From contig OZ252223.1 of assembly GCA_965249145.1 (NCBI GenBank), positions 2,121,757 to 2,185,756 on the forward strand: a stretch of DNA of 64,000 bases, given 5' to 3'. This document shows positions 34,168 to 50,696 of this stretch, piece by piece. Under the pieces are notes generated by a model. The model worked only from the letters and a program-made list of their open reading frames with translations. It searched no databases and was not told the DNA's origin. This stretch comes from Dehalococcoidia bacterium (GTDB taxonomy: Bacteria > Chloroflexota > Dehalococcoidia > Lucifugimonadales > UBA3495). Both the position numbers and the translations under genes were made by a program. Numbering within the stretch: the stretch's first letter is position 1; each line of letters begins with the position of its first letter.

Positions 34168-34477
34168 CTTCCCCGGTGGATAGTTCAGCTCGATTAGGTA
34201 TGGGCCAACTTCCGAACAGCACTCAGCATTTATTACGCACTTCTCACATTCTTGGCGTGGGGGATTGTTGATTGTTGCCTTCCTGGGGTTCCCCTGCTCC
34301 CCAACGCGATGAAGCAGTCGACAATTAGTGTACGCTATAGCAGCCACTGTACCTTGCCGGGGGTTCCTTGCCTGTCCTTCGGTGATTTGGAACGGCCTCT
34401 GGCCGCAGTACCTCCACCTTGACAAAGGGTATATGTCTCACTAGTTTTAGTTTACGCATCACTGAAAGGGGCGCGTT

Positions 34478-34729
34478 TTGTTTAGGTTACTCAAATGGGG
34501 CCGGAATCCGGATAAAGACGAGGCGCTAGATAGACCAGAAATTCATGTCAGGCCTAACGGTACGATATACGTCAAACCTGGCGAACTTCTTCGAAGCAAA
34601 AGAGGGAAAGCCGTAGTCGATAGGATGCTGAAAGCAGACCTTACGAAACTCAAGAAGAGAGCAAACAGGAAAAGAATGGCCCTTCGGAGACGGAACCTCC
34701 GCCGGCGGACTGAGAGAACCGATAATTGA
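34478..34729 (+). CDS. small protein with a highly basic tail, function unknown
   Basis: 83 aa with C-terminal KKRANRKRMALRRRNLRRRTERTDN. TTG start, stop overlapping the next start, and visibly lower GC than the surroundings. Confidence 0.4.
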   Translation: MFRLLKWGRNPDKDEALDRPEIHVRPNGTIYVKPGELLRSKRGKAVVDRMLKADLTKLKKRANRKRMALRRRNLRRRTERTDN

Positions 34730-35409
34730 CCATTGGTCTGCTTCTGCTGCCCGCCGTGGGTGGCTATTGGTTTCTTACTCACTGGAATTTCACCCGGTAC
34801 CGTGCAGCGCGACAATCCGGCTATCACCTTCTTTTCCGATCCGCCCTGTTTGGCATCGTTCTCTACTGCGCCGCCCGCTTCATCACGCTGGCCATTGACG
34901 TCCGCTACCCGTCGGCAACCGGGTTTTGGGACGATCATTTCCCTGAGCCGTTCACCAGCGAAGTGGTGGTGAGCCTCGTCTTGGCCGTTCTGATACCCCC
35001 AGTGTTCAACTTGTTTTACTCCAAAGATAGAGGTGCTGAGAAAGTGGCGGAAGATTCAGGTGATCACATCGAACTACTCATTGCCGACTCTATCAGAAAC
35101 CCAATGCCCATTGAGGTAACTCTCCGTAATAGGAAATCTTATATCGGACTGGCTCTGAACAGCGGAATAGGCAGCACTACTGAAGCCGACATAGAGCTGG
35201 TCCCGATGTATAGCGGCTACCGCGACAAAGAAACCCTTGACCTGGAAATAACCTTGGACTATGTCCCTGTGGTTTCAGATTACCTGGAAGACCCGGCGTG
35301 GTTAGAGGAAGATTTCAGGGTCGTGATCCCGCTGTCTGAAATCGTGTCAGTTCGACTTTTCGACGAAGAAGCTTACGACGAATTTCAGGGGTGGCGCGAC
35401 ATACCATAA
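34726..35409 (+). CDS. membrane protein (3-4 TM) with C-terminal soluble domain, function unknown
   Basis: 227 aa with hydrophobic N-terminal half. Translationally coupled to the preceding ORF. Lower-GC cassette. Confidence 0.5.
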   Translation: MTIGLLLLPAVGGYWFLTHWNFTRYRAARQSGYHLLFRSALFGIVLYCAARFITLAIDVRYPSATGFWDDHFPEPFTSEVVVSLVLAVLIPPVFNLFYSKDRGAEKVAEDSGDHIELLIADSIRNPMPIEVTLRNRKSYIGLALNSGIGSTTEADIELVPMYSGYRDKETLDLEITLDYVPVVSDYLEDPAWLEEDFRVVIPLSEIVSVRLFDEEAYDEFQGWRDIP

Positions 35410-35467
35410 CCCAAGCAATAGGTCGGCTAATGTCGGAACCCTCCGGCGGACCAGGAGCCACCCTCCG

Positions 35468-35709
35468 AACCCCGGGGCCTTGCGGGAGTGCTAGCCCAGG
35501 GGACGACGGGTGATTGAAGTCCTAGCAGTGGTGGTCATTGGTGCAACAATATGCTCGATTTTGTTGCACGGTCAACCGGACAGCGTCAGTACCACCGGCG
35601 AAGCCTACCGCGCTGGTGGACCGGCGACCGCCCCAGCTCTGACAGTATCCAGATTCTTAGCGGTGGCCAGTTAGGCGCTACAGGCCGCCGGCCGAGGCCT
35701 CCTGACCCC
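35468..35709. repeat. module C: decayed integrase start (contains a stop), palindrome GCAACAATA-TGCTCGA-TTTTGTTGC and full upstream arm
   Basis: Aligns with module A over about 240 bp. Confidence 0.8.
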
Positions 35710-35742
35710 TCTATCCGGGCTTGACGCCGGCCGGGCAGGCCG

Positions 35743-36325
35743 TCAGCAAAACGGCAGGCCGCCCAGGTCGGAGTACTCCATATCCAATTGGCCCTGCAAG
35801 CTGCCTGGTACGCACCCGCTCAGCTGGTTGCCGTTGAGGCGCAGCCGGGTTAAGCGGGCGAGGTTGCCCAACTCCGGCGGGTATCCACCCGCTCAGCTGG
35901 TTGTTTTGGAGCCACAGACCCTGCAGGTTGGCCAGGTTGCCCAACGCCGGCGGTGTATCCCAGGTCAGCTCGTTCGAGGAGAGGTCCAGCACTCGCAGGT
36001 TGGCCAAGTTGCCCAACGCCGGCGGTATTTCCCCGCTCAACTGGTTATCGTTGAGGACCAGTTGTGTAACGAGGCCGGCGACGTTAGTGTCGACTCCACG
36101 CCAAAGGAACATTGGTGCGTCGCTCAGCCAGTTTTCGTTATGCATCCAAGTGGGGCCGTCCGTGGCGTTGTAGAGGGCGACCAACGCTTCCCGGTCCGTT
36201 TCGGGTGATGTGTTTACAAGGGCTGAACTGGCGGGTGTGTCCGAACCGCAGGCGGCGAGCAGAGGCAGAAGAAACAGCACAAGGCCGTAAAGATGTAAGG
36301 GAGCCAGCCGTGTGGGCGTCACCAT
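35743..36325 (-). pseudogene. LRR lipoprotein with a 1-nt frameshift near the 3' end
   Basis: Lipobox LLAACGS, REALVALYNATDGPTWMHNENWLS, then LRRs. Frame is lost at the run near 35879-35881. The corrected reading ends ...GNQLSGCVPGSLQGQLDMEYSDLGGLPFC* at 35743. Confidence 0.65.
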
Positions 36326-36531
36326 GGGAGTGTCGGCACGTATACCGCAACTATGACAAGTCGCCCATGCCAAAGTTGCAAGGTGACCTTCTTGAGGAGC
36401 CACCACAAAGCACCGGGCGCAGAGTTCAGCAAAGGCTACCCATCACCCTATACGTTGTCCATTGTGATAACGGCCGCTGCCGTATCAGCTTTGGTTGTGA
36501 TACTAGGGGTTGCCGCGACTCCCGCTCAACG

Positions 36532-38385
36532 TCATTCGCCGTGCCACGGTGGCAAGACAATTTCGCCCCCTCCCCAGCAGATGACGGTGCCGTCGGTTCT
36601 GACCCCGCAGGTGTAGTTGCTCCCGGCGCTGACAGAGACGAACTCCCCGCCTGGTGGCGTGGCCTCACCATTGAAATCATTGCCCCAGCAGGCAATGGAG
36701 CCGTCGGTTCTCACTCCGCAGGTATGGTTGTTACCGGCGCTGACGGAGACGAACTGCGATGCGGGCGGCGTGGCCTGGCCTTCTTCATTATTGCCCCAGC
36801 AGGAGATGGAGCCGTCGGTTCTCACTCCGCAGGTGTGGTAGGATCCGGCGCCGAGGGAGACGAAATCCCCTTGAGGCGGCGCGGCTTGGCCGTATTGATC
36901 AAGACCCCAGCAGGAGACGGAGCCGTCGGTTCTAACACCGCAATTGTGGTCGTAACCGGCGCTGAGGGCGGCGAATTGCCCCCGGGGCGGAGTGGATTGG
37001 CCGCGGTGGTCATAGCCCCAGCAGGAGACGGAGCCGTCGGTCCTCACCCCGCAAGTGTGGGACAGACCAGAGCTGACGGAGCCGAATCCCCCTGGGGGCG
37101 GCGAGTTTCGTCCTTTGCGATCATCCCCCCAGCAGTCAATTGAGCCGTCGGTTCTCACTCCGCAGGTGTGGTTGTACCCGGCGCTGACAGAGGCGAACTC
37201 CCCTTGGGGCGGCGTGGCCTGGCCGTGGCTATTATTGCCCCAGCAGGCGGCTAACCCGTCGGCCCTCGTCCCGCACGCGTGCCAGGACCCGGCGCTAACG
37301 GAGGCGAATTCCCCGGTGAACGGCGAGGCCCTGAGGTAGGATTCATTGCCCCAGCAGGAGACGGAGCCGTCGGTTCTCACTCCGCAGGTGTGGTAGTACC
37401 CGGCGCTGACGGAAGCGAATTCTCCCTGAGGTGGGGTGGCTTGGCCGGAATCATTATTGCCCCAGCAGGAGACGGAGCCGTCGGTTTTCACTCCACAGGC
37501 GTGGCTCCCGCCAGCGCTGACGGAGGCGAAATTGCCGGTTGTTGGCGTGGAACGGACAACGATACGACTTCCCCAGCAGGAGATGTAGCCACCGTGCCTC
37601 ACCCCGCAGCTGTGCCAGTTCCCGGCGCTGACGGAGACGAACTGCGATGCGGGCGGCGTGGCTTGGCCGGAATCATTATTGCCCCAGCAGGAGACGGAGC
37701 CGTCGGTCCTCACCCCGCAGGTGTGGAAGTACCCGGAGCTGACCGAGGCGAAGTCCCCCTGGGGTGCCGCGGCCTGGCCTTCTTCATCATTGCTCCAGCA
37801 GGAGACGGAGCCGTCGGTCCTCACCCCGCAGGTGTGGAAGCCCCCGGCGCTGACGGAGGCGAATGCCCGGGTTGGCGGCGTGACCAGGCCATGAGAATTA
37901 TCACCCCAGCAGGCGACCGAGCCGTCGGTTCTCACCCCACAGGAGTGGCTCCCGCCAGTGCTGACGGAGGCGAATTGCCATTGGGGCGGCGTGGCCAGGC
38001 CATGAGAATTATCACCCCAGCACACGACGGAGCCGTCGGTTCTCACGCCGCAAGAGTGGTGTAACCCGGCGCTGACGGAGGCGAACCTGACCTCCCCATT
38101 TTCGACATCACTGCCTCCGCCCACCTCGGGGTTGGCGTCGCCCGCTTCTTCAGTGTCGTCCGGTTGGGCGGTAGGCTCAGGAGTTGACGTGGAGGTAGAT
38201 GTCTGCGTCGGTGAAGGTACCGGGGTGTTCGTCGGACTCGTTGTTGCCAGTGACTCAGGTGTGAATCCGGGCCTCGGAGTCGCCGTGGGAAGCGGGGTCG
38301 GCGTAGGAGTGACGGCGGGTTCGGCCTCACAGGCAATTGCGAGCAGGAGTGCGAGGCCCAGTGCAATGGCCGTCGCCAGCTTCAT
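36532..38385 (-). CDS. RCC1-repeat lipoprotein (about 22 repeats)
   Basis: Lipobox LLAIAC and a Pro/Thr-rich linker, followed by repeated F.SVSAG..HTCGVRTDGSV.CWG.N..GQATPP units. Confidence 0.85.
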   Translation of the reverse strand: MKLATAIALGLALLLAIACEAEPAVTPTPTPLPTATPRPGFTPESLATTSPTNTPVPSPTQTSTSTSTPEPTAQPDDTEEAGDANPEVGGGSDVENGEVRFASVSAGLHHSCGVRTDGSVVCWGDNSHGLATPPQWQFASVSTGGSHSCGVRTDGSVACWGDNSHGLVTPPTRAFASVSAGGFHTCGVRTDGSVSCWSNDEEGQAAAPQGDFASVSSGYFHTCGVRTDGSVSCWGNNDSGQATPPASQFVSVSAGNWHSCGVRHGGYISCWGSRIVVRSTPTTGNFASVSAGGSHACGVKTDGSVSCWGNNDSGQATPPQGEFASVSAGYYHTCGVRTDGSVSCWGNESYLRASPFTGEFASVSAGSWHACGTRADGLAACWGNNSHGQATPPQGEFASVSAGYNHTCGVRTDGSIDCWGDDRKGRNSPPPGGFGSVSSGLSHTCGVRTDGSVSCWGYDHRGQSTPPRGQFAALSAGYDHNCGVRTDGSVSCWGLDQYGQAAPPQGDFVSLGAGSYHTCGVRTDGSISCWGNNEEGQATPPASQFVSVSAGNNHTCGVRTDGSIACWGNDFNGEATPPGGEFVSVSAGSNYTCGVRTDGTVICWGGGEIVLPPWHGE

Positions 38386-38503: not shown

Positions 38504-38692
38504 TTACCCGGATCCGGGTTGCTCTGTATCCGACTCTTCCCTGACCTCGCGCATCGCGTCAGTCAGTCGCCCGAATTGTTCCTCGGTGAGCTCGGGGGAG
38601 TCATCGTCATCGAGGAACGATGCCGCGTACATGGCTTCCTTGCTGACGCGGTAGTGCGTGATTCCGTTTTCGTCTACCCATGAGGTGGTCAT
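38504..38692 (-). CDS. small acidic protein, last gene of the polyvalent-protein operon
   Basis: 62 aa, rich in D/E (FLDDDDSPELTEEQF...EESDTEQ). Its start overlaps the stop of the 1030-aa gene (ATGA). Confidence 0.45.
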   Translation of the reverse strand: MTTSWVDENGITHYRVSKEAMYAASFLDDDDSPELTEEQFGRLTDAMREVREESDTEQPGSG

Positions 38693-41600
38693 TGCGTCTT
38701 GATTATCTCCATCTTAAAGTCGTCCACGCCCTTGAAGACCACTTCGTCCTCACTGGTGAAAGAGCCGGTTGTGTGGGCTAGGTCGGTGAGGATTATCGAG
38801 TCGACAGGCACTTCGGCTTTCGCCACAAAGGAGCCGTGGCCCCCCTGGAAGTTGTGCGCCACCGAGGGAGAGAAGCTCCAGGAGTAGAGCGGGGGGTCGT
38901 CCAGGTTAACAATTGAGCCCACCTGGGAATTTTTCAGGCCCAGGTACTTCACCTGGTCGGGCTTCCAGCCCCGGTAGACCGTGATCTTGTCCTTGCCTGG
39001 GCGCTTCATCGCCATCAGGACCTCGTTCTGTTCGCTGGTGACCTTCAGGCCCTTTACCAGGTCCTGGGCCTCCGGCTCGGCGGTAGCCTTCTTCATATAG
39101 TCGGCGTACTCTTTCCGGTTCTTTGCCGAAAGAGCCCCTTCCTTGACCAGAAACTCGTTGAACTTATCCAGCCTCCGCAGCTCCTGGTCTCCTTCGGCGT
39201 GCAGCTCGCCGGCGCCCCAACGAAGGACCGAGCCCCCGGGACTAATTGACGACCCCTTCCAGCTCCCGTACCGGGACCGCACCCTATCGGCGGCTGCGCT
39301 TCCCTCGGTTTGTCCCAGCTCCATGGCCATTATCTTTTCAGTCAGTTGCCATTTGGCGTCGGGACCAGGGGAGCTGATCTTGTAGCCGTTGGCTTTGTCG
39401 GCGATCGCCTCTACGCTCGCGTCCTTCAGGTCCGAGAGCCCCTTCAGCTGCTGCAGCGTGGCAGCCTTCTTCTGTTGCTGCTTCAGGACCTTCTCCACGA
39501 TGTAATCCCTGCGCTGCTTAAGACGGCTTTTGACCAACCCGGGCAGGTCCTTGGCGGCCTCTCCGAATTGGGAGACCGGGTATTCGGGCGACGTCTTGGG
39601 CAGGTCGGCGCTATCTACGGCAAAGTCGATCTGGTCATCGGTAATGGCGGCCACCCGTTCCGCGCTCGCCGCAATTTCCGCCGAAGACATATCGGCGAAA
39701 ACTTTGGAGGCCTCCTTGGATTGGCTAGGATTGCGCATGGTGTCTATTTCCTGGACGGTTTCGGGGAAGTCCCGGCCTTTCCCCTGGGCCCGGAACAGCA
39801 GGCTGCCGCCCACGTCGGTCCGGTAAGCCTTGTCCCCAGGTCCTCCTACCACGTTATCCGCCTGCAGGCCCACAACGTCCCAATTCGCCAGCCAAGCGTC
39901 GACCGCAAAGCCGGCCCGGACGTCCGGGTGGACTCTCATATCCTCAAAGGTCATCGGGGCGGCCTCGTCGATCCAGTCGGACATCACCGCGTCCTTGCCC
40001 TGGAAGTTGATGACGCGGACGGACGGGACCGGGACCTCCGCGTAGCTGTACAGCAGGGCAGTGAGCCCTTCCATCTTGGCCCGGGCCTCGGAGTTCGGCC
40101 ATTTCACGTAGTGCAGCGATCCGAGGTGTTTGTCCTTGAACAGACCCCCTTCGTTGGAGCCCTTCTTGCCGGAGATTTTCTGTAGGTCAGCATTGTAGTC
40201 CTTAGTGCCCTGCTTGATCTGGTTGCGGTGCTTTTTCAACGTCGCGGCGGCCGGGGTTTCCTGCCCGGGTAATTTCACCTCGCCGCTGCCAACGCTGGCC
40301 ATGGTGTCGCCGAAGCCGGAGCCGCCATCTCCCTCCAGGACCGGCTGCCCCTGGACCTTGCCTTTCAGCTCGGCTGCAACATTCAGGACGGCCGCCTTCT
40401 TGGCCGGACTCAGCATCTTGGCCAACAGAGTCCCGGCCACCTGGTCCACCTCGTCGGGGCTTCCGGTTTGGGCAGCCTTTTCCAGCTTCTTGACGTTGAC
40501 GGGCGTGATCAGGGCCTTCCCCTTGTTGTCATGGGGGACAACACCGGCAGTTATCGGATCGGCCTGTTGCGACGCCGGCGTCGGCGCTGGTGCGGGGGCC
40601 TGGTCATCCTGGTCATCCACCGAGGAGCTTCCGCCCACGGCGATCGCGTCCAGTTGGCCCTGCAGCGCGCCCACAACGTCGAAGAGCGCCTTCTTGGCGG
40701 CCGGAGTCTTGTAGCTTGGCCCTGCTGCCATGATGTTGGCGGTCGCCGTGAGGAAGCCCTTGTCGCCGGTCACCGCGACAGTCTCGAGCTGCTTGACCTG
40801 GCCCGCATCGATCCCAAACGGGATGCCCGCCAGCGTGGGCTTGCCGGTAACTGCGGCCTGGGCCTCAGCCGCTTTTTTGTTTGCCTCGATGAGCTGGTTC
40901 TCCAGCTCATTCGCGGCCTTTTGTACCAGGTGCTTCTTGCCGTATTGGCCGGTCTGGTCCACCAGGTCCTTGGCCGTCTGATGCAGGGTGTCTATATTGC
41001 CAGTTGAAGCGGCGCCCTCGAGCAGGTTTATCTCGCTTTCGGTCAGCGGGTCGTCGTCATAGTGGCCATCGGTATCCATTGGTTTGAGCTTGGCCGCGAA
41101 GGTGCCCCTGACGCCCTTCGTTTCTCCGGCATAGCCGGCGGCGTTGAGCATGCGCCATTCGGCTTGGTAGCCGAGGGCGTGGAAGGTCAGGAACCACGCT
41201 TGGAAGTGCTTGCCCCTGTGGGCCTTGTCCGGGCGGCCGTCGTGGTCGAGCGGGCCCCATTCCACGAACTCCGGAACGTTCTCGATGAGGACGCACCTGA
41301 CGTCCAGCTTCGTCAGCCAGTTGTGAATCGCCCAAGGGTTCATCCTGCCTTGGTCGTGGACCGGCTTTCCGCCGCGGGCGCGGGAGTAGAACTTGCACTC
41401 CGGGCTGGCCATGAGCAGGTCGAGGCGTCCCTCTTCGACCACCGCCTCCGGGTCCACGATGCTGACATCCTCGACCAGGTGCCGGGCGGATGGGTGGTTC
41501 GCTGAGTGGGTCGCGACTGCGATGTTCCAGTGGTTGACGGCGACCAGCTCCATCGACCCGCCGATCTCGGCGATGGCCTTCTTGGCGCCGGTCGACGAGC

Positions 41601-41781
41601 CGCCCGCGCCGCAGAACAGGTCCGCGACCAGGTAGGTATCGGTCGCGGTCATTGCCGGAAGGGCTGCCGGCGTCGGGGCGGATGCCTCGACGTTAGGCGC
41701 TACCAGCTCCTGGGCGGCGTCGGCTGTGGGCGCGGGCATCTGCGAATGGTGCCGTCGGCGCAGCCTCGCGGCCGTCATCAT
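38689..41781 (-). CDS. polyvalent protein: C5-cytosine-methyltransferase N-terminal half, helical repeats, protein-kinase-like core and R-S-ExE ADP-ribosyltransferase
   Basis: - aa 55-61 FCGAGGS, 126-133 SPECKFYS, 166-172 IENVPEF
- aa 541-560 GSNEGG...HYVK, 633-643 NWDVVGLQADN, 655-660 TDVGGS
- aa 936-938 YRG, 967-971 SWSFS, 1010-1016 SEDEVVF. Confidence 0.8.
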   Translation of the reverse strand: MMTAARLRRRHHSQMPAPTADAAQELVAPNVEASAPTPAALPAMTATDTYLVADLFCGAGGSSTGAKKAIAEIGGSMELVAVNHWNIAVATHSANHPSARHLVEDVSIVDPEAVVEEGRLDLLMASPECKFYSRARGGKPVHDQGRMNPWAIHNWLTKLDVRCVLIENVPEFVEWGPLDHDGRPDKAHRGKHFQAWFLTFHALGYQAEWRMLNAAGYAGETKGVRGTFAAKLKPMDTDGHYDDDPLTESEINLLEGAASTGNIDTLHQTAKDLVDQTGQYGKKHLVQKAANELENQLIEANKKAAEAQAAVTGKPTLAGIPFGIDAGQVKQLETVAVTGDKGFLTATANIMAAGPSYKTPAAKKALFDVVGALQGQLDAIAVGGSSSVDDQDDQAPAPAPTPASQQADPITAGVVPHDNKGKALITPVNVKKLEKAAQTGSPDEVDQVAGTLLAKMLSPAKKAAVLNVAAELKGKVQGQPVLEGDGGSGFGDTMASVGSGEVKLPGQETPAAATLKKHRNQIKQGTKDYNADLQKISGKKGSNEGGLFKDKHLGSLHYVKWPNSEARAKMEGLTALLYSYAEVPVPSVRVINFQGKDAVMSDWIDEAAPMTFEDMRVHPDVRAGFAVDAWLANWDVVGLQADNVVGGPGDKAYRTDVGGSLLFRAQGKGRDFPETVQEIDTMRNPSQSKEASKVFADMSSAEIAASAERVAAITDDQIDFAVDSADLPKTSPEYPVSQFGEAAKDLPGLVKSRLKQRRDYIVEKVLKQQQKKAATLQQLKGLSDLKDASVEAIADKANGYKISSPGPDAKWQLTEKIMAMELGQTEGSAAADRVRSRYGSWKGSSISPGGSVLRWGAGELHAEGDQELRRLDKFNEFLVKEGALSAKNRKEYADYMKKATAEPEAQDLVKGLKVTSEQNEVLMAMKRPGKDKITVYRGWKPDQVKYLGLKNSQVGSIVNLDDPPLYSWSFSPSVAHNFQGGHGSFVAKAEVPVDSIILTDLAHTTGSFTSEDEVVFKGVDDFKMEIIKTQ

Positions 41782-43114
41782 TCTAGGAACTCCTCGAATG
41801 CCGCGTACCGCTCGAGAAGGGCCAAGTGAAGAGTGCCCACCGGCCCGCTCCGGTTCTTGGCGACGATGATCTCAGCCACGCCCTTCGGGTAGGGTTCGCC
41901 CAAGTTCGTGCGGCACCACTCATCCTCCGTGATGTACCGGTCCGGCCGGTGGATGAACATCACCACATCGGCATCTTGCTCGATGCTGCCGCTTTCCCGA
42001 AGGTCCGACAGTATGGGCCGGCGGTCCGGCCGGTTCTCCGGCCGGCGCGAGAGCTGGGAGCACACCACCATGCCGCAGGCCAACTCCCTGGCCAGCCCCT
42101 TCAGCGCTGCGCTGATGCCGCTAACCTCCTGCTCGCGGTTCTCCCGGGCCCTTCCCTGGACCAATTGCAGGTAGTCCACCGCCAGCAGGTCGAGGCCCTG
42201 TTCCGCGGCCAGGCGCTTGGCCTTTCGGCGGATCTCGCCCACCGTCTGCTGCGGGGTGTCGTCGATGTAAAGGGGAAGCTCCGAAAGCCGGCCTATAGAG
42301 TCCATGATCCTAGCTTCCTCAGCGTTGGTCAGAAGGCCCAGCGCCATCCGGTAGGGGTCAACTTGTGCCTCGGCAGCGAGAACGCGGACAGGCAGCTCCG
42401 ACCGGCTCATTTCCAGGGAAACGAATTCCGCCACGCTTCCCTGCCGGGCGGCGTTCAAGACCATGCCCAATGCCAGTGATGTCTTCCCCACCGAGGGGCG
42501 CGCCCCGACGATCACCACTTGTCCGCGTTTGATGCCCCCGAGCAGCTCGTCGATGCTGGCGTACCCGGTGAAGACGGGCCTGGCGGGGCCGGCGCCGACA
42601 TCGGCCCGTTCCTCCAGGAACTCGTCGTACACTTCCCTCAACGGGATAGGGCCGTCAAGGCGGGCTTGAGGGTTGTCTATAGCTTGCAGCACGGCCTCCG
42701 CCTGGCGGAGTGCCGCGCCGATGTCGTCAGTGTCCTGGTATCCCATCGAGGAGATGCGCGACGCCGCGTCGACCAACTTTCTCATGGTGGAGGTGCGCGA
42801 GACCGCGTTGGCGTAGTCTTCCGCGTGGGCCGACGTCGGAGTGATCGCTACAAGATGGCTCAAATATGCCATCCCCCCGACGACTCCAGGAGACCGGTGC
42901 GGCCCAACTCTCCGGCGATGGTCAGCTGGTCGATGGCGTCGCCCCGGTCGAAGAGGTCGCGGGCGGCTTGAAACACCACGGCGTTTCGTTCCCGGTAGAA
43001 GTCGCCAGCCTGCAGTTCCAGGCGGGTCATGCACTCGCCGTCGATCAGGAGGCTGCCAATCACAGCCTCCTCCGCCTCGGTGTCGTGGGGCAGGAGCTTC
43101 TCCGCGAACACCAT
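41778..43114 (-). pseudogene. DnaB-family helicase paralogue carrying a homopolymer frameshift
   Basis: - The N-terminal 84-aa ORF (MVFAEKLLPHDTEAEEAVIGSLLIDGE...) and the 448-aa ORF join at the C6 run 42873-42878 (LLESSGG/MAYLSHL).
- Walker A GARPSVGKTS.
- Locally very similar to chromosomal DnaB (GGMAYLSHLV.ITPTSAH.EDYA.AVSRTSTMRKL.DAASRIS.MGYQDT). Confidence 0.8.
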
Positions 43115-43116
43115 GC

Positions 43117-43833
43117 CTAACCATCCACCACCGCAGCCCAGCGGACGAATCTCCGGTCGGTCAACTTCGCCGGCAGGGCGGGGTCGTCCGGGAGCATCCG
43201 GGTGGTAACCACGGTTGCCAGTTTGTGCTCATAGCGGTGATTGACCAGATTGGCCAGCTGTTCGTCGGCCCACTCCGTCTGCCGCTCCTCGCCCAGGCCG
43301 TCCAGCGCCAGCAACCGGGCGTCCATGATCCGGGAGTAATCGAACACCTCGCGGAATTCGGGGCTGCGCATCCGGTCCAAGAGCCTCACCACCCCCGCCC
43401 ATGTCCCCGGATGCGCAGCTGCGGCCAGCACCGCCTTGGCCAGGTGCGACTTGCCCGCACCAGCAGGGCCGTTCAGGACCAAGAACCCTTCCGGGTTAGC
43501 GGCGTACTGCCGGGCGGCGGCCAATGCCGCAACTAGCGCCGGCCCCTTCGAGCAGTCAAACGTGTCGAAGGACGATTCCCGAAGCCGCTGCAGGCCGAGA
43601 TCCCCCAGTGGGGCCTTGACCCCGAAGGCCGCTGCATCGCCGCTGCAATCCTTGCAGATTGACGACCCGGCCAGGCGGCCCGCCGGGTCACGAAACTTCC
43701 GGAACCCCTTGCCGCCGCAAAGCTCACACGCAGGCGGCAGCATCGGCTCCAGGAATTCCGTCGGGGTAGACTGCGTCGATGTATGCCTGTGCCGGATGTC
43801 CTGCAGTATTTCTCCCAGGGCTTGCACTTGCAT
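43117..43833 (-). CDS. DnaC/IstB-like AAA+ loader with N-terminal Cys4 ribbon (single module)
   Basis: CELCGGKGF...CKDCSG, Walker A GPAGAGKSHLAKAV, Walker B LLALDGLG. The N-terminal LGEILQDI parallels LGDILRRI of the chromosomal gene. Confidence 0.75.
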   Translation of the reverse strand: MQVQALGEILQDIRHRHTSTQSTPTEFLEPMLPPACELCGGKGFRKFRDPAGRLAGSSICKDCSGDAAAFGVKAPLGDLGLQRLRESSFDTFDCSKGPALVAALAAARQYAANPEGFLVLNGPAGAGKSHLAKAVLAAAAHPGTWAGVVRLLDRMRSPEFREVFDYSRIMDARLLALDGLGEERQTEWADEQLANLVNHRYEHKLATVVTTRMLPDDPALPAKLTDRRFVRWAAVVDG

Positions 43834-44575
43834 TTCCCTTCCTCCCCCTCGCTATGATTTTCACTTCCTGGGCGAAAAAGCCGTTCAATACCCTTAGCCG
43901 GTCGGGCGCGTCCGGATAGCAACGCTCCTCGAAAGCCCGGTAGGCACTCTCGGCCTGGGCCTCGCTTAGGCCGTGGTCCTGGTAGGCCCTGCGGACCTCG
44001 CCCCAGTCCATCTCGTCGGCATGGACCGACCGGTTGAACCATTCGGGGCCCGATTGTTTTTTTTCATGTCCAACGACGTCGTTATCTATTACATCTAGAC
44101 TAGTAATAGGTATGGGGTGACAACTACTGTCACACCCCCCTCGATTTTCCAAGCTAACCGTTGTCGTACCCACCGCGACAATAGTTGTCGCACCCCCCAC
44201 GATAGTAGTTGTCGCACCCAAGGGCCAGACCGCCACCAGAATCCCCTCGTTTCCGCTGCCTTCGGTCCGCGCCAAGCCCACCGCTTCCAGGGCTTTCAAA
44301 CATCGCCCGGCGGTCCGGCGGTGGATGCTGAGGGCGTCGGCCAATGACTCCAGAGTGAGCTGGCAATACCCCTCGAATCTGCCCTTTCTCGTGCGTGAAA
44401 GAGCTAGGAATTCGTAGGTACGCAAAGCTGTGGCCATGGACACGCACTCGCGTTTGCCGTGTTGGGATTTCAATCCCTGAAGGTGGTCGGCGAGGGCGGC
44501 TACGGCCCCGGCCGGTAGCTTGACGTAGTTGTTCGCGGGCCACTCCGGCCGCTGCGTGGTATCATGGCTTTCCAT
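43724..44575 (-). CDS. winged-helix DNA-binding protein, putative replication initiator
   Basis: wHTH-like LTLESLADALSIHRRTAGRCLKALEAVGLA. Located upstream of the loader and helicase genes. Contains the iteron-like repeats. Start taken at MESHD. Its 3' end overlaps the loader gene by 110 nt. Confidence 0.45.
   Translation of the reverse strand: MESHDTTQRPEWPANNYVKLPAGAVAALADHLQGLKSQHGKRECVSMATALRTYEFLALSRTRKGRFEGYCQLTLESLADALSIHRRTAGRCLKALEAVGLARTEGSGNEGILVAVWPLGATTTIVGGATTIVAVGTTTVSLENRGGCDSSCHPIPITSLDVIDNDVVGHEKKQSGPEWFNRSVHADEMDWGEVRRAYQDHGLSEAQAESAYRAFEERCYPDAPDRLRVLNGFFAQEVKIIARGRKGNASASPGRNTAGHPAQAYIDAVYPDGIPGADAAACV
44113..44222. repeat. iteron-like cluster: GTTGTCG(C/T)ACCC at exact 24-bp spacing plus inverted copies
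   Basis: Direct copies at 44160, 44184 and 44208. A related CTGTCACACCCC lies at about 44127. Inverted copy within GGGGTGACAAC at 44115-44125. GCGACAA at about 44175. Confidence 0.5.
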
Positions 44576-44672
44576 GAGTTCACCCCACCCCTTCCCGGGT
44601 AACTTTTGCCCCGCTCTGCCGCAGTTTGAAGCCCGGCTGAGCACCGAAAATCCTAGGGCATATTGATCGGCA

Positions 44673-45665
44673 TCAAAGGGTTATGCCAACCCTGTATGCC
44701 CTACTACAACCCCTCGTAACAAACGTCTTGCTCGCACCCCGGCGACCTACCGCAGACCCCTTAAAATCCTGCTCATGCTCGGCCGCGATTTCCACTTGAG
44801 TCTTCCCGCGAGCCGCGGCTTCCCGTATCGATTCGTTTCTTAGCCCCCTTTCCTCGTCCGAGAGGTGCCAGGGGCGGGCGGCAGGACGGATCTTGACCAC
44901 CCGTGACGTCTTGCCAGGCCACCGCCCCAGGGCGGCCGCGGCATAACGCTCATCGATTTCCATGGCGTAACCCTCCTTCAGCCCGCGCTCCAGCGCCGCC
45001 AACAACGTGGTGCCAGACCCGGCAAATGGGTCGTAAACCGCCCACTCTTCGGCCCCCAAGGCGTGCATCAGCGCCTTAACTACTGATACCGGCTTTTGCG
45101 TAGGATGAACCCGGTTCCTCGGAGGCACCGGTGGCGCAAGGATGACGTCGGGTTTGCCCCACACGGATGGCCCTGGCTGCCGCTTCCCCTGCAGGACCTT
45201 CTCGAAGGCAAGGACATCCTCGTGGGCGCTGCGCCACTCCCCTCCGACGCCCGCCACCACTTTGCTTCGGTCGTGCGTGGTTTTGACCCAGACGACCTCC
45301 GCGCTCAGGGCGAAGCCTGCCCCCTGGATGATGTCGCCGGTGAGGGCCAACTGCCGCCAGTCGGTGAAGATGTAGACCCTGTCCGGGACCGCCCGGTCTA
45401 GCATTCTCACTATCAGGTCTCGGTAGCCCGTCTCATTCAGCACGTCGCCGCGGATGGGCTCGTAGTTCGACCTGGTCCCCTTGCTCCCCAGGATTTTGTT
45501 GTTGAGCCGCCCGGCGGAGTAGGCTGGGTCGGTCATTACGCACAGCCTGGATCTACGGCGTTCCCTGAGCAGGTGGCGGACGTCCTCCGCCCGGGTGGAG
45601 TCGCCGCACATTAGGTAGAACTCGCTCTCCTCGTGGGTCAGCTTGTAAATTTCGCCGCGCCGCAT
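44673..45665 (-). CDS. N4/N6 DNA methyltransferase (beta-class, PF01555-like) with C-terminal HTH-like tail
   Basis: TDPAYS (DPPY-type motif IV) precedes HPTQKP and FAGSGTT (motif I). Start taken at MRRGEIYKL. Confidence 0.8.
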   Translation of the reverse strand: MRRGEIYKLTHEESEFYLMCGDSTRAEDVRHLLRERRRSRLCVMTDPAYSAGRLNNKILGSKGTRSNYEPIRGDVLNETGYRDLIVRMLDRAVPDRVYIFTDWRQLALTGDIIQGAGFALSAEVVWVKTTHDRSKVVAGVGGEWRSAHEDVLAFEKVLQGKRQPGPSVWGKPDVILAPPVPPRNRVHPTQKPVSVVKALMHALGAEEWAVYDPFAGSGTTLLAALERGLKEGYAMEIDERYAAAALGRWPGKTSRVVKIRPAARPWHLSDEERGLRNESIREAAARGKTQVEIAAEHEQDFKGSAVGRRGASKTFVTRGCSRAYRVGITL

Positions 45666-45733
45666 TGGCCCCCCTACCTCCCAATCCGAACATCCGCCTT
45701 TGGCCGTGCAATTCTGGCGACCAGGCATGGCCC

Positions 45734-46126
45734 CTACTCTGTCCCCAGGAGAGGAAAGGGCGGCCGCGGGTGATCCCGTGGGTCGACGACGTTGCTCTGG
45801 TCGTCGCCTGAGGCGTCGCGCTGGTCTGCAGCCGCGGTTTTAGCGAGCCGGCCGTAAGCGGCGTCCCGGCGCACTTCCTTGATGATGCGATCCCGGTAGG
45901 CGATGATCCGGTCGATCACCGCACCAGGGAGCTTGAACGTATCGCCGTCATGACCGATGGTGGCCTCCCAAGTGCCCTGGACCCTCCGGACTGCCACGAT
46001 GTAGTGTTCTTCGACAATGTCGCTTCGGTTCTGGGCCAGGATCCCTGGGGCATTGTGCTCAACCTGCCGCAACTTTTCCGGGGCGAACAGGGAGGCCGCG
46101 AAGGAGTCCATCTCGATCGTGACCAA
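45734..46126 (-). CDS. hypothetical protein, first clear gene of the minus-strand operon
   Basis: 130-aa ORF on the same strand, 5 nt upstream of the methyltransferase ORF. No recognisable motif. Confidence 0.4.
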   Translation of the reverse strand: MVTIEMDSFAASLFAPEKLRQVEHNAPGILAQNRSDIVEEHYIVAVRRVQGTWEATIGHDGDTFKLPGAVIDRIIAYRDRIIKEVRRDAAYGRLAKTAAADQRDASGDDQSNVVDPRDHPRPPFPLLGTE

Positions 46127-47307
46127 AGCCCTGTTTTTTGTACTCCCCGTTCATCCGGGGGGCGGGCCGCTTGCGCTCCTTGGTGGTTTTTGGGTGGTTT
46201 TTGGTTTGGGTGTGTTCTTCGCCGTATACGTACCCTCCTAGAGTTAGGCGGCTACTGAAGTTCGTGTCCGCCGCGGGCAGGTGTATTCCCTCCGCGAAAG
46301 GCAAAGCAGTGGTGGAGCTGGCGGTGGTGGACATCATCAGGAGGATGGACTCGCGTATAGTATTCCGCCTGGACCAGTGAGTTTCTGGTCCAGGCGTCAT
46401 CGCGGCACTATGCAAGAGCAAGACCGGGGCGAAGGGTCTCAACGCCTCGGCGACCGCATCGCAGCCAGGGGTGTACATAAGCGAGGCGAACGGGCCCTTC
46501 TTCGACGGGCAGGCCCCGCACACCCAGTTGGCCCAATGGGAATCGTCGGGAGCTAGGGAGTGGCCGCAGTCAGGACGCATAACGCCCCCCACCCAGCGCG
46601 TCGGACAAAATGCCAGTAGCCCGCTGCGGAGGCGGGCACTCTGTCAACGCGCAGGTAGAGGACGCAGGAGGGGGATGACTAAAGCAATAGGGGACGGCCA
46701 CAAGGCCGCGGTTGGGGAAGGACATTCCGGGTCATCTCCTACTAGCCGAAGATCGTTGAACTGAGCAGTTCAAGAGTAAGAGATGAACCAGCGATTGGTC
46801 AAGGGCCCAAACCAATTTCTCTTGAGGTCTGCGAACCCTAGTTTGTGGTGTCCGACGAGATCATACTTTATCGGGGTTAGATAGTTTCGATTTGTGGGCG
46901 AGGCGATCACCCGAAAATGCGAAGCGGACAGCCGTTTAGCTGCCCGCTTATACTTTTGGTGAGAGGACTGGAACCGGCGGACCTTCTCGGAAAACGAGTT
47001 TGCTCAGAACAACGAACCCCGAGGAGGCCAGTCAGAGACGGCGGTTGTTAAGTCCGCCGGTCCAGCCCTATTTTACCCCAGCCCGGTGGCTGACGCCACA
47101 AGGCGCAGAGCCTGAGTTGTTAAGCGCCCGTTAAGGGACGCGGGCGCGCCATGACCTCCGTGTTAGCTTTGCTCCTGGTCTGAAGGAGGAGCTGGTGCGC
47201 GATAACCTTCGATACGGTTACTCCCCTGCTTTCTTAGAACTACGGCTTTTATTCCCCTGCGAGATCCCCCATAAACGACGAGATGGGGCCCTCTTCATGC
47301 CCCCTTC

Positions 47308-47366
47308 GGCTGGGGTCTGGCTAGGACTCCTGATCCAGAGTCATACGTCCTATTACTGCTCCCCGC
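47308..47366 (-). pseudogene. decayed tRNA-Gln-like relic directly 3' of the intact tRNA-Gln
   Basis: Shares GGCTGGGG...CTGATCCAGAGTCA..CGTCCTA with the adjacent tRNA. It lacks the T-arm and has mismatched stems. Confidence 0.45.
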
Positions 47367-47371
47367 TTCTT

Positions 47372-47445
47372 TGGCTGGGGATGGAGGATTCGAACCTCCG
47401 CTACCTGATCCAGAGTCAGGCGTCCTACCGCTAGACTAATCCCCA
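47372..47445 (-). tRNA. tRNA-Gln (anticodon CUG)
   Basis: A 74-nt cloverleaf folded by hand:
- acceptor TGGGGAT/ATCCCCA with U1-A72, discriminator G73, encoded CCA
- D-stem GTCT/GGAC
- anticodon stem CCTGA/TCAGG with loop CT-CTG-GA
- T-arm GGAGG-TTCGAAT-CCTCC. Confidence 0.9.
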
Positions 47446-47718
47446 GCGCGGTACGGTCGAGAAAAGAGTGAACGCAGATTGTTGTAGGGTGCCTATGCGA
47501 GGAAACGACTTCGGGTCTTTTCTGCTAGGTCTAAGCTCCTTCCCTGAGGGGTGGCTTCTGCCATGGTATCAAAGTGCAACGCATTGGGTAAACTGTCGCC
47601 AGCCAATCGGCCCGAGACAGGGGCCACGTCCCGAGCCCGTCATCTGGTTGAGGTCGCTGGAATAAAGAGCTATTGGTTCTGTTGCATTTTGCGGGGTAGA
47701 CTCGCGTTACCGTTGGCG

Positions 47719-48243
47719 TTACTGCCCGTGAGCGAGCGCTGGCCGGTTTTCTATCACCCACCGCTTTGCCTGGTCCGCGGGATCGTGGACAGTGGGATTC
47801 TTATCCATCCGCGCTCCGATGGTTACCCACTTTCTCAGCTCCGCGTCAGTCATTTCTATCAGCTCAACCCAGTCCTCTGTAGTCAAGGCAGACCCTGCGG
47901 CTACCCGGTTGCGCAGGGTGTCCATAAGCTTGTTGTTGAATGCCCGCGACTCTTCCCACCATTCGTGATATCGGTCAGCTCGGCTTCGTTGATAAGCGAC
48001 CTTACTGTCCATCTTGGTCTGCATGCGGTCCGTGACGTTGGCGTCCTCTTTGCGCAGCAGGTCCCTGAAGGCAGCTTTTAGTCTTGACTCCAACAACATG
48101 AAGGCTAACTCGTCTCTCCGCTTGCGTGCCTTGAACTCATTCAGGGGCGGTTGTACGACCTCGTCGATGGCCTGGTCGAGCCGGAGCCACTCATCCCCGA
48201 CAACTTCGGCTGATGGTTGGTTCTGCTTTTTGGGCCTTGGCAC
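47719..48243 (-). CDS. hypothetical protein (helical, charged)
   Basis: 174-aa ORF beginning with GTG. It may be fused to the upstream zinc-ribbon ORF if a frameshift is present. Confidence 0.4.
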   Translation of the reverse strand: MPRPKKQNQPSAEVVGDEWLRLDQAIDEVVQPPLNEFKARKRRDELAFMLLESRLKAAFRDLLRKEDANVTDRMQTKMDSKVAYQRSRADRYHEWWEESRAFNNKLMDTLRNRVAAGSALTTEDWVELIEMTDAELRKWVTIGARMDKNPTVHDPADQAKRWVIENRPALAHGQ

Positions 48244-48346
48244 GGTTCGCCCGCTGCCGGCAGGTCCCGCCGCAGTACCTAGCCGTGCCCCGTTGGGCCT
48301 GAAACTCTGTGCCGCACGTCTCGCAACGTAGCTTTAACCCTGGCAT
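48191..48346 (-). CDS. small Cys4 zinc-ribbon protein
   Basis: MPGLKLRCETCGTEFQAQRGTARYCGGTCRQRANR. A GGAGG RBS lies 7 nt upstream of the ATG at 48346. Confidence 0.45.
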   Translation of the reverse strand: MPGLKLRCETCGTEFQAQRGTARYCGGTCRQRANRAKAQKAEPTISRSCRG

Positions 48347-49019
48347 TAGCGTTACCTCCGGCCTGTAACGTGATGATAGTCCCTCCTGGTGACTGCGTGT
48401 TACTGGCCCTAATTGTAACGCGAGGCTACCCCGCAAAATGCAACAAAACCCCCAAAGACACTTTCAACTGTGGACTCTAAGCATTGCATCACGCGGTTGG
48501 CAACCGGGAACTGTCACTGCCTGAGTGGAGTTGATGGGAGGCCCAAATCTCCGTGGCACCGCTTAAGGCCCAGGGCCGTCCCTCGGGTGAGCTGGCAAAG
48601 AAGCTAGGCCGTGCGTATTGCACCAGCCGTAGGCCCGGCGGGTGCCATGACGTCGTGCTGAACGTCGTCGACGTCCATGAGTGCAGCTGGTCGAGGGCCA
48701 TAGTTAGGCGCTACTTCACATTTGAGTTTCGCCCCGGGCAATCCTCGCAGGCTTCGTCGGCGTGCTATGGTGCCAGCTCGAGCTCGGCCAAGGCAACTTG
48801 GACGGCATCGAAGGCAAATAGGCCCCCGTTTTGCAACCGGGAGGCCATGCGTTCGGCCTTCCAGTCTGTCTTGTCAGACCAGGGCATCAACTGCCCCGCT
48901 CGTCGATGCCCAGCGGAATAACCCGAAGAGCTTCGTCTGCGGCCCGGAGCGGTCCCGAAGGGCCCCTGGCCGACGTTGGGGCCACCCCATCGGGTGTTAC
49001 TGTTCAGCGTCAACTACTT

Positions 49020-50696
49020 CTGCCGGCCTGTTGCCTCACCGGAAAATGTTACCGAAACTTTAGCACCTAGAATCCACTCCGATCAGCGCCAGTTCCGGGA
49101 GTCCATGCGGTTCCGTTGAAGCGGCAGCAGTCCCGGCGTAAACCAGTTTTTTGGCCATGATGCAGCGCCACGCCTTCACCCGGCGTTGCATGGTTCGTAA
49201 CTGTGCCGTGCTGAAACGATCTGGGTGTTCCGCCTGCAATCTGGTCATCAGCGCCTTGCCGGTCACATCCGGGTGGGCTTGCAACCAGACCAGCACGTTG
49301 CCCCAAACCCCTTCGATGGGGTCCTTGCGGGTTCGCCAGTGCCGGGGACACCGGACTCGGGCCGCGTGGGTAGGTAGGCCGGACTTCGCCTTGGCGCCAC
49401 AGCCTGGGCAATTTGGCGAGGAAACGTTCAAGGCTTTCGCCCGTTGGCGTTTCCTGCACGTCTGGAGGGGTCGCTGCCACCAGGGCCGACTGGGCTTCCC
49501 GGATGGTATGCAGCAACAGCAGCGGATCCAGCCTGGCTCGGTATTGGCGGAGCGCGTCCTTCATGTCACCGTCGATTGCATCGTGCTGTATCGCGCGGTC
49601 GCAGGGCGTGGTGGGCTGACTGTAATGCTTGACGGTGGTGGCGCCGTGCCGGGTCTTGTTGATCAGCTTGAACGAGGGTTGGAAGAGTTCACGTACAGCC
49701 GCAACGCCCCGTAAAGGTGCGCCATGGTCTGCCCGGCGACCTGGCCCGAATAACGATCATGGCCGACGAAGGGGCGTACCACAGAACCATTTTTCTGCTC
49801 GATGCAGGCCTGATCGTTGCTGCGGTACGCTCGCGACCGGGTGAACTCAATGTCACGGTCAGCGCAGTACTGGATCAGCGTCTCGTTGATGAACACGCCA
49901 TCGTTGTCCGAGTCGATGCCGCGGATGGGGAAGGGCAACCGCTGACCAATGGCTTCCAATCCAGCCACGATCAGGGACTGCTCCCTAGCCAGCAGGGGAA
50001 CGGCTTCGGTCCAGCCGGTGCAGATGTCGGTAGCCACCAGGCTGTGGATGAATGATCCGGACAGCGGTCCACCACAGTGCGCCACCAGGTCTATCTCCAG
50101 GAACCCGGGCGGCGGTCCGTTCCAACCATTGTACGTACGCACCGGAACGCGTTTCCCCATCGCTTGCCGACGCCGCCGTCGGCGTCGGGTGCCCGCTGTG
50201 GGACGGATCGGTTTCAGGAGACGGTCCAGGGTGGCTGCGCTGGCAGCGAGGAGACGATCCCGCACCTCAGGATCCAACGCGAGATGACCATGGCGCTCCA
50301 TGGAATCCACCAGGTGGGACAGCGCCGCCTTCAGGCGTTTCCCACAGATACGGTCAGCAGCTTCCCAGATCACGATCACTGCTTCTCGAACGGCCTCATC
50401 GTAGATGCGCCGGCCTCGTGCCGGTCGCGGTGTATCCTCATTATCGTCAAGCTGCCCTAGCAACCTGATGCCGTGCTTGCGATGGTGTCCAGTGATCGCA
50501 ATGAACTCGTCCAGGATACGGCTCTTCTCCTTCTTTGAGGAGCTCCGGTAACGGTCTCTCAGTGTCGCCAGTAATTCCCGCTTTGCCATCCTGCTTATGC
50601 CTCCACCCACGTGGCCGCCTCCGAGTTTTCGGTAACATTTTAGTTGAGGCAACAATCTCCGTTGGTAACGTTTTAGGTGAGGCAATCCGCCGGCAA
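49020..50696 (-). mobile_element. insertion sequence with rve/DDE transposase (ISNCY/IS1202-group-like; family tentative) and about 30-bp imperfect terminal inverted repeats
   Basis: Ends are CTGCCGGCCTGTTGCCTCACCGGAAAATGTTACCG (49020-) and GGTAACGTTTTAGGTGAGGCAATCCGCCGGCA (-50695). An extra internal copy GGTAACATTTTAGTTGAGGCAACA lies at about 50632. Confidence 0.7.
49060..50685 (-). pseudogene. DDE transposase with at least two frameshifts
   Basis: Three overlapping ORFs:
- N-terminal MAKRELLATLRDRYRSSSKKEKSRILDEFIAITGHHRKHGIRLL
- DDE core (EIDLVAH..., GIDSDNDGVFIN, IEQKNG)
- C-terminal RTRKDPIEGVW...LRTMQRRVKAWR in other frames. Confidence 0.75.

Follow-up and report, generated by a model that had tools for sequence, protein, structure and literature searches.

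The window analysed here, a 64-kb (64,000 nt) stretch of contig OZ252223.1 from a Dehalococcoidia metagenome-assembled genome (MAG), carries a block of seven co-oriented minus-strand open reading frames (ORFs; 38504–46126) that includes a phage-type replication operon and lies near a gene for tRNA-Gln(CUG). The first ~24 kb of the window are housekeeping genes (TenA, DnaB, DnaC-like, BacA, SpoU methylase, PIN-TRAM, IspD, CysS and others), and from there to the end mobile DNA predominates, with an IS21 element, three rve-type transposase genes, a large serine recombinase fragment, a short tyrosine recombinase and genes for repeat proteins (leucine-rich repeat, LRR; RCC1; and a 2308-aa FG-GAP/cadherin protein). 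Beginning with the first gene, the block encodes a hypothetical 130-aa protein (45734–46126; GC content at third codon positions, GC3, of 0.79), an orphan beta-class N6/N4 DNA methyltransferase (MTase; 44673–45728), a putative replication initiator with a weak winged helix-turn-helix (wHTH) at residues 78–136 (43724–44644), a DnaC/IstB-like AAA+ loader with an N-terminal zinc ribbon (43117–43833), a DnaB-family replicative helicase (41778–43114), a 1030-aa chimeric MTase/kinase-like/ADP-ribosyltransferase (ART) protein (38689–41781) and a small acidic protein of 62 aa and net charge about −11 (38504–38692). An ATGA overlap joins the last two genes and the other junctions are gaps of 2–28 nt or short overlaps. 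An earlier note on this DNA, made from the sequence alone, had described seven tightly packed genes in this order, ending in a small acidic protein, and the ORFs confirm that description.

All of the block genes that can be assigned to a family match phage families (PHROG). The window is chromosomal DNA with a GC content of ~62%, and no compositional anomaly was seen in the block. Family searches agree with the earlier note that capsid, tail and other structural genes, terminase, conjugation and integrase genes are lacking within the block; extended to the entire 64 kb, they returned no structural, lysis, regulatory or packaging genes, so that structural genes do not lie just outside the boundary that the note had drawn. 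Its term 'integrase-less' holds for the block itself, but a short tyrosine recombinase lies 6.6 kb downstream (31317–31934) and related loci have it linked to the polyvalent gene. As neither a relaxase nor a type IV secretion system nor a Rep family is present, a conjugative or plasmid origin was rejected. A nucleotide search of 36–50 kb against 50,697 phage records gave no match, no record came up when the proteins of the window were looked up by exact sequence, and PADLOC assigned no defence system, only generic MTases. The hypothetical 130-aa protein has no family match in Pfam, PHROG, PADLOC or NCBIfam. Upstream of its gene lies a Cys/His-rich ORF (46260–46592) with coding-like GC3 at 46275–46575, and the two may be a single gene of ~280 codons that is broken near 46135, at an A6 run. 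At 46182–46204 there is a short tandem repeat (GGTGGTTTTTG, two copies).

The consecutive genes for initiator, AAA+ loader and DnaB-family helicase form the core of the block, and the initiator gene appears to contain the origin (44051–44218, minus strand; Tandem Repeats Finder (TRF), pattern search and GC profile). Three repeats recur at a 24-bp spacing (44200–44218, 44176–44194 and ~44152–44170), the second of which is a perfect dyad (GCGACAAC..TTGTCGC), followed by a related palindrome (44114–44138) and a ~60-nt AT-rich stretch (44051–44113). TRF scored the period-24 tandem repeat at 87 (44160–44220), and a pattern search with the 19-mer found two matches where 0.02 were expected by chance. 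The middle of the gene has 50% GC against the ~62% background, and both gene ends keep coding-type GC3. Thus the iteron-like repeats of the earlier note are real, but the wHTH that it assigned to the protein is matched in Pfam only below threshold (E 0.002–0.009). No Pfam, PHROG or NCBIfam family matches the initiator above threshold, and the protein recovered only itself both in a word-indexed search of 5.8 billion clustered proteins and in an exhaustive HMMER pass over 1.84 billion representatives. The search for homologous modules that the note had proposed was run against phage and plasmid collections, together with a single-protein IMG/VR scan, and left the initiator unmatched; the nearest phage DnaC-like loaders are ~32% identical to the block loader. 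The putative initiator is thus an ORFan whose coding sequence holds a putative origin of the lambda O/SPP1 type.

The calls of an N6/N4 MTase and a DnaC-like loader are both backed by Pfam, PHROG and NCBIfam. For the loader these are Pfam IstB_IS21 and Zn_Ribbon_Prim, PHROG 50 and NCBIfam; its true start is likely at 43743, and the database gene call is 208 aa. Outside the window it has a single, distant best homologue (30% aa identical). The earlier note had named conserved chromosomal synteny across relatives as the case that would overturn its view of the block, and with this one distant loader homologue and an initiator found nowhere else, no such synteny was encountered.

The helicase belongs to the DnaB family as proposed (Pfam DnaB_C 1.4e-84; PHROG 19), but its reading frame is split. 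The N-terminal domain (42860–43114) and the remainder (41778–~42884) occupy different frames, which jointly align end to end with the host DnaB encoded at 2416–3780 (62–66% aa identity); the break is a 1-nt loss in a G6 run (42873–42878), and the protein would be full length were the missing nucleotide restored. The chromosomal DnaB gene is itself followed by a gene for a 462-aa protein with two IstB/DnaC-like AAA+ modules (4422–5810), so that a host pair of helicase and loader-like protein stands in this genome beside the phage-derived pair.

Apparent frameshifts also affect genes outside the block (14623–15680, 24227–25094, 26683–28240 and 49060–50685). A luciferase-like monooxygenase gene is split at a short homopolymer, an NAD-epimerase gene is split over two frames, and the further genes that appear frameshifted are probably the IS21 istA and one rve transposase. 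These suggest either assembly indel errors or unusually many pseudogenes, and in the names of related contigs, assembled in the same study, the coverage tag falls to 1.9x in the lowest case. Because of the similar frameshifts in other window genes and the low coverage of the related contigs, the DnaB frameshift is treated here as a possible assembly error and hence as no evidence of decay; its use as proof of pseudogenisation was rejected on the same ground of similarly frameshifted window genes.

The earlier note counted two methylases, and only one of them can be active. The N6/N4 enzyme looks complete (Pfam N6_N4_Mtase 4e-11, PHROG 498 2.8e-31, PADLOC type II MTase models), bears DPAY and FDPFAGSGTT motifs and has no restriction partner nearby. 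The second is a 5' fragment of a phage C5 cytosine DNA MTase gene (41133–41652, minus strand), with motifs I–VI, which breaks off in motif VIII and forms the start of the 1030-aa protein. Residues 38–231 are 85–92% identical to the first ~190 residues of full-length C5 methylases (>100 proteins of about 570–840 aa), whereas the Pfam DNA_methylase match spans only profile positions 3–164 of 324 and the match to PDB 3g7u covers residues 5–124 of 376. At the nucleotide level, 41132–41649 is 96.9% identical to positions 1742–2259 of a co-occurring phage-like contig (L003) and 88% identical to a prophage (L004), whose methylase is 87% identical to the fragment in aa. The similarity ends at residue 231, inside motif VIII, where the window reads LNAAGYA and then unrelated sequence and L003 reads LNAADYGDATTRKRF. 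Since the motif VIII arginines, the target-recognition domain and motifs IX–X are missing, this half cannot be an active methylase.

Two homologies meet at the breakpoint (41116–41132, minus strand): the similarity to L003 (96.9% nt) stops at 41132, and that to two further related loci, L001 and L002 (74% nt), starts at 41116 and 41103, respectively, with coding-like GC3 throughout. On these alignments the 1030-aa protein is a chimera in which the first ~215 codons come from a C5 methylase and ~800 codons from the end of a polyvalent gene. Its simplest history would be a deletion or illegitimate recombination that took out all DNA from mid-methylase to mid-polyvalent gene and kept the frame by chance. 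The 'polyvalent MTase-kinase-ART protein' of the earlier note therefore stands in its kinase-like and ART part, while its MTase part is half an enzyme, probably joined by a deletion.

The C-terminal ~800 aa (38689–41132, minus strand; homology, AlphaFold model and Foldseek) comprise helical repeats, a kinase-like domain (about 39697–40209) and a putative ART domain with an R-S-ExE signature (about 38692–39138). From residue ~216/223 to its end the protein is 70% aa identical to the homologues P0001 and P0002, and over shorter C-terminal spans it is 48–63% identical to a dozen larger proteins, mostly of 1063–1741 aa; the window gene lacks the N-terminal 400–900 aa found in most homologues. Residues 226–1030 were modelled with AlphaFold from a 15-sequence alignment (mean predicted local distance difference test, pLDDT, of 72.8). 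Against PDB structures, Foldseek matched the kinase model to protein-kinase folds, with CtkA and HipA the best small kinases (probability 1.0, TMt ~0.5) and eukaryotic-type kinases also present, all of them weak matches (lowest E 3e-3, so that none reaches 0.001). Every one of the 15 family sequences keeps a D-x4-N loop and a D-x-G-G motif. Among viral structures (BFVD), large phage proteins were matched with E down to 3e-10, with annotations such as a PI3/4-kinase-like domain protein, ADP-ribosyltransferase, and head-morphogenesis and portal fusions. In the C-terminal 200 residues YRGW, YSWS and ExE are invariant in the same 15 sequences, the Pfam DRAT match (E 5.6e-5, 22.9 bits) falls below the 25-bit cut-off, and the ART model (pLDDT 84) drew a weak Foldseek list (E ≥ 0.07) that is mostly ART (PARP12/14/15, VahC and Rhs ART toxins). 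Neither part matched PDB by sequence.

Phage proteins recur among the relatives of this part. The kinase-like domain is 32–44% identical to protein segments in 20 cultured phages, several annotated as ADP-ribosyltransferase, including a 2146-aa particle-associated 'ADP-ribosyltransferase toxin' of Yersinia phage fHe-Yen8-01. A single-protein IMG/VR scan with the polyvalent protein gave no match, and an alignment-based scan gave one distant locus, a contig with the kinase-like domain inside a 1699-aa MuF/head-morphogenesis protein directly after terminase and portal. A MuF or portal domain is absent from the window copy and its close homologues. Thus at least two predicted effector domains, kinase-like and ART, share one polypeptide whose relatives are phage-derived. 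The acidic protein has no family match (Pfam, PHROG, PADLOC, NCBIfam), and in L001, L002, L005 and L006 a homologue (47–68% aa) comes immediately after the polyvalent gene; a 60–63-aa acidic partner with an overlapping start is kept in five of five loci. Upstream of the polyvalent relatives in L001 (527–9720) and L002 (1–10038) stand giant ORFs of 843–1654 aa, with paralogous copies of the kinase-like domain in an 843-aa ORF of L001 and a 1424-aa ORF of L002. The large neighbours that were tested gave no Pfam family and no informative PHROG match, nor did the long homologues match PHROG, and the giant ORFs are taken as arrays of uncharacterised polyvalent proteins.

The related loci also bear on the true extent of the region. 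L004 is a textbook prophage with integrase, cI-type repressor and Xis. The polyvalent/acidic pair of L005 is terminal in an inserted element; next to it is a gene for a 342-aa integrase, after which ordinary chromosomal genes begin. L006 is a 42-kb phage-like contig in which one side of the pair is a same-strand gene run that includes fn3- and collagen/trypsin-domain proteins, read as tail-like though no family assignment identifies tail genes. The opposite side has an LRR gene, with ~70% nt identity to the window LRR genes, and a 188-aa tyrosine recombinase, with 60% aa identity to that of the window; beyond them is a primase-like gene, with DUF5131, DUF1643 and a C5 methylase, three genes that L004 shares. 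The recombinase of L001 is 80% aa identical to that of the window and lies 3 kb downstream of the pair. In the window itself, the genes following the block are an RCC1-repeat protein (36532–38385, minus strand), two mutually inverted LRR lipoprotein genes (35711–36406, minus strand; 32586–33806, plus strand) and the short, catalytic-domain-only tyrosine recombinase of 205 aa (31317–31934, minus strand), all assigned by Pfam and NCBIfam. Because the polyvalent/acidic pair, an LRR gene and a recombinase are linked in L006, 31.3–38.5 kb probably belongs to the same phage-derived region as the block, and the relic would run from ~31.3 to 46.6 kb. The accessory position beside an integrase in the relatives would fit a prophage-expressed toxin, defence or conversion gene equally as well as an anti-defence gene. 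Homologue searches with the initiator and the loader recovered essentially only these proteins themselves and yielded no intact relative of the replication module.

The recombinase is of the size of FimB/FimE invertases (NCBIfam) and stands among inverted LRR genes, and its present role may be inversion and not integration. The LRR genes share inverted repeats (352 nt at 74%, and 45 nt at 96% at their 3' ends), and a ~216-nt direct repeat with three copies (31868, 34018 and 35472) contains the 5' end of the recombinase gene; 31317–36406 resembles a shufflon or an invertible-cassette system that would serve surface LRR proteins.

Beyond the other end of the block, the tRNA-Gln(CUG) gene (47372–47445, minus strand; ARAGORN, Rfam 68.7 bits) lies 1246 nt from the first block gene across a mostly non-coding gap. 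Both this tRNA and the decayed copy reported beside it were recovered: 17 nt downstream of the tRNA, a partial copy (47310–47352, minus strand) runs from the anticodon arm to the 3' end, has lost its T-arm, matches at 22 of 24 nt (47329–47352) and keeps a CCCCAGCC 3' remnant. Dedicated searches of the 64 kb with the tRNA 3' end and the anticodon arm (blastn-short) agree with the earlier note that there is no second, distal attachment (att) repeat beyond this adjacent copy. No integrase lies beside the tRNA, and the nearest tyrosine recombinase is 15.4 kb off, with a catalytic domain only. An identical 74-nt tRNA-Gln occurs in 19 species-representative Dehalococcoidia genomes, all MAGs of 1.4–5 Mb, most of which share an upstream promoter-like sequence (CTTGACAC ... 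ATACCAT); a divergent alpha/beta-hydrolase gene stands upstream in 14 of the 19, with too little sequence fetched for three of the other five, and nothing is conserved in the downstream flank. The window lacks both the promoter-like sequence and the hydrolase neighbour and shares neither flank with the 19 genomes. Opposite the block, 230 nt upstream of the tRNA, is a 778-bp unit within 36-nt inverted repeats (47675–48452, minus strand) that encodes a Zn-ribbon and helical protein (L003 identity and tblastn; PHROG for the Zn-ribbon part). The unit is 95.3% nt identical to L003 9652–10434, with the similarity ending exactly at the inverted repeats; its protein (86–96% aa by tblastn) is split by a frameshift in the window, whereas L003 has it in a single frame. 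The unit resembles a small mobile cassette passed between phage genomes.

The tRNA of the window may be the canonical copy, its neighbourhood heavily rearranged, or it may be a copy borne by phage-derived DNA; under neither origin does it mark where the block ends. The partial copy beside it is the record of an older integration, the element of which has since gone. With distal repeat and adjacent integrase absent, the conserved upstream context missing and phage DNA on both sides, the reading of tRNA-Gln as the attachment site of the block is not upheld. At 61535–62122 the window holds a C-terminal fragment of a large serine recombinase with broken frames, 38% identical to one directly downstream of the identical tRNA-Gln in L018; near it is an exact 36-nt tandem duplication (AGGTAGTGACATACGTAGTAGCTTCCCGCTCATGAC, two copies, 62094–62165).

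Taken together, the block is probably the surviving early/replication module of a temperate phage, that is, a defective prophage remnant with an accessory module in a mobile-element-rich island. Phage provenance follows from the PHROG matches, the identity of the methylase with those of L003 and L004 and the presence of the kinase-like domain in phage proteins, and decay from an MTase cut in motif VIII, a lost polyvalent N-terminus and the absence of structural and regulatory genes. In this respect the earlier note, which took the block for the replication and early module of an integrated element whose structural genes are gone or were never there, is borne out by the phage-type genes, the plausible origin and the lack of structural genes. 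In the intact ancestor, the initiator would have bound the repeats and opened the AT-rich DNA, the loader would have set the helicase onto the opened DNA, and host primase and polymerase would have finished theta replication. The methylases may have shielded the phage DNA from restriction, and the kinase/ART protein may have modified proteins of the host or of competitors, with the acidic protein as its inhibitor or partner. The phage cycle can no longer be completed because genes for excision, regulation, packaging, capsid, tail and lysis are absent, and at present the block might at most initiate replication in situ from its origin or serve related phages as a source of sequence.

Several points weigh against this interpretation. 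With an assembly error as the cause of the DnaB frameshift, none of the replication genes need be damaged, and since that frameshift may be an artefact, the term 'relic' depends mainly on the chimeric gene and the missing modules. The chimera in turn keeps an open frame of 1030 codons, which selection for a functional product could explain. The initiator call has position, weak HTH matches and the embedded repeats as its whole basis, the ancestral phage is a reconstruction, as no intact relative of the replication module was found, and the partial tRNA copy shows that some site-specific integration once happened here.

Among the rival explanations, a larger composite island of ~17 kb (31.3–48.5 kb), possibly still mobile through the short tyrosine recombinase at 31317–31934, is unlikely but the least so. 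Its content would be the replication module, the polyvalent toxin pair and a cargo of LRR/RCC1 surface proteins, and tRNA-Gln would lie inside it or at its edge. The linkage of recombinase and polyvalent/acidic pair in L006, L001 and the window, with the LRR gene between them in L006, speaks for such an island, as do the phage-derived DNA on both sides of the tRNA and a tRNA copy without its canonical chromosomal context. Conversely, a recombinase of 205 aa with a catalytic domain only and the size of FimB/FimE invertases, surrounded by inverted LRR genes and repeats, favours an invertase over an integrase role; terminal direct repeats were not found, and the order and orientation of the linked genes vary between loci. 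Less probable again is a functional, compact satellite-like or cryptic replicon at tRNA-Gln, with its own replication and with a helper phage or foreign recombinase for mobility and packaging, as the earlier note had envisaged. Origin, initiator, loader and helicase do stand in a single tight operon, the DnaB frameshift may have arisen in assembly, the N6/N4 MTase appears intact, the partial tRNA duplicate is a trace of past integration at tRNA-Gln, and patches 95–97% identical to the co-occurring L003 suggest contact with potential helpers. Against this, the tRNA has no adjacent integrase, no distal att repeat and no canonical tRNA-Gln context; repressor, excisionase, terS, capsid-redirection and cos/pac-type genes were not found (Pfam, PHROG, PADLOC, NCBIfam); the C5 MTase is truncated at a junction that resembles a deletion scar, and the chimeric gene is a sign of decay; and neither copies nor relatives of the module occur in 5.8 billion proteins, hence there is no element family. 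The claim of a satellite-like or autonomous cryptic replicon is accordingly not supported.

An assembly artefact, in which the MTase-polyvalent junction and/or the DnaB frameshift are long-read metagenome errors and the real genes are intact and separate, is improbable to a still greater degree as an account of the whole. Several window genes are frameshifted at short homopolymers, and the MTase segment is a repeat found in >100 phage variants of the same community that could mislead an assembler. A repeat chimera should, however, run on into the MTase, whereas here the frame stays open through 800 codons of an unrelated gene, with coding-like GC3 maintained over the junction; repeat-induced misassembly at this point was rejected since the sequence after the junction is unrelated to the remaining MTase gene. 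An artefact is thus likely for the DnaB frameshift and unlikely for the junction. Least probable of all, and only a slim prospect, is that the block is a working member of an unsampled group of integrase-independent, phage-derived replicative elements in Dehalococcoidia, similar to satellites or phage-plasmids, whose ORFan initiator and origin would fire in situ or after excision by a helper and in which the in-frame fusion and the acidic partner would be a selected effector/immunity pair and no scar of a deletion. The block is most likely an ordinary kind of relic and not a new satellite or cryptic replicon.

The defective prophage reading can be set against known systems. Lambda has its origin within gene O and SPP1 has oriL within gene 38, and SPP1 genes 38-39-40 encode, in order, initiator, helicase loader and DnaB-type helicase (G38P-G39P-G40P). 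The block resembles SPP1 in this gene order and resembles both phages in an origin within the initiator gene, with dyad repeats followed by an AT-rich region, where binding of the initiator is here a prediction from sequence. It differs in that its initiator matches no known initiator family, its loader is IstB-like with a zinc ribbon, unlike lambda P, and its helicase is a close paralogue (62–66%) of the host DnaB. The defective (cryptic) prophages of E. coli K-12 are temperate phage fragments kept after deletion of morphogenesis genes; like them, the block has mosaic patches near-identical to circulating phages and lies amid insertion sequences, but it resides in a Dehalococcoidia MAG, consists of a replication module and a toxin-like pair and has no adjacent integrase or repressor. 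With satellites, namely phage-inducible chromosomal islands (PICIs), capsid-forming PICIs (cfPICIs), P4-like elements and PICI-like elements (PLEs), the block shares small size, its own replication, a position near a tRNA and few structural genes, but it is without an integrase at the tRNA, an att pair, a master repressor and packaging or capsid-size genes (Pfam, PHROG, NCBIfam, PADLOC). A primase-helicase is typical of PICIs and P4, and the block instead has replication genes of the initiator/loader/DnaB type.

Polyvalent proteins of phages and conjugative elements were described by Iyer et al. 2017 (PMC5512222), and the block protein is like them in uniting several effector domains in one large, phage-derived polypeptide. 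The H-Y-D ART type was reported as typical of these proteins (PMC5512222), unlike the R-S-ExE signature of the block ART. The block copy and its close relatives are without a MuF or portal module, which distant relatives have, and the relatives of the gene lie in an accessory region by an integrase, outside the head gene cluster. The block gene further differs by its conserved acidic partner, its N-terminal truncation and its fusion to half a methylase. For the central domain the best structural matches of the model are CtkA of Helicobacter pylori and HipA (E ≥ 3e-3); there is no significant sequence similarity to either, and the block domain is embedded in a multidomain protein with an ART.

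The remnant documents phage traffic and decay in large-genome soil Dehalococcoidia, for which, to our knowledge, there are no cultured phages, and it is a clean example of a lambda/SPP1-style putative origin inside an initiator gene whose protein is without relatives among about 15 billion proteins. Two by-products may prove more useful than the block itself, as the remnant alone matters little: a recurrent phage accessory module of kinase-like/ART polyvalent protein, acidic partner, LRR lipoprotein genes and short tyrosine recombinase, and the homopolymer frameshifts in the assembly, which affect any pseudogene claim made from it.

Other mobile DNA in the window was noted in passing. Two inverted, 97%-identical IS3-family insertion sequence copies (52564–53315 and 62587–63338) bracket 53521–60447, which encodes the 2308-aa FG-GAP/cadherin/fn3 surface protein, in an arrangement like that of a composite transposon; the ORF of the left copy (51979–53298) starts with a DUF6884 domain. 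Finally, 29901–31246, adjoining the IS21 element, holds a DisA_N/diadenylate-cyclase-domain protein (30284–31246); its neighbour, an MNT-type nucleotidyltransferase, is matched by the PADLOC candidate system PDC-S09, and the two are possibly a defence or toxin-antitoxin pair.

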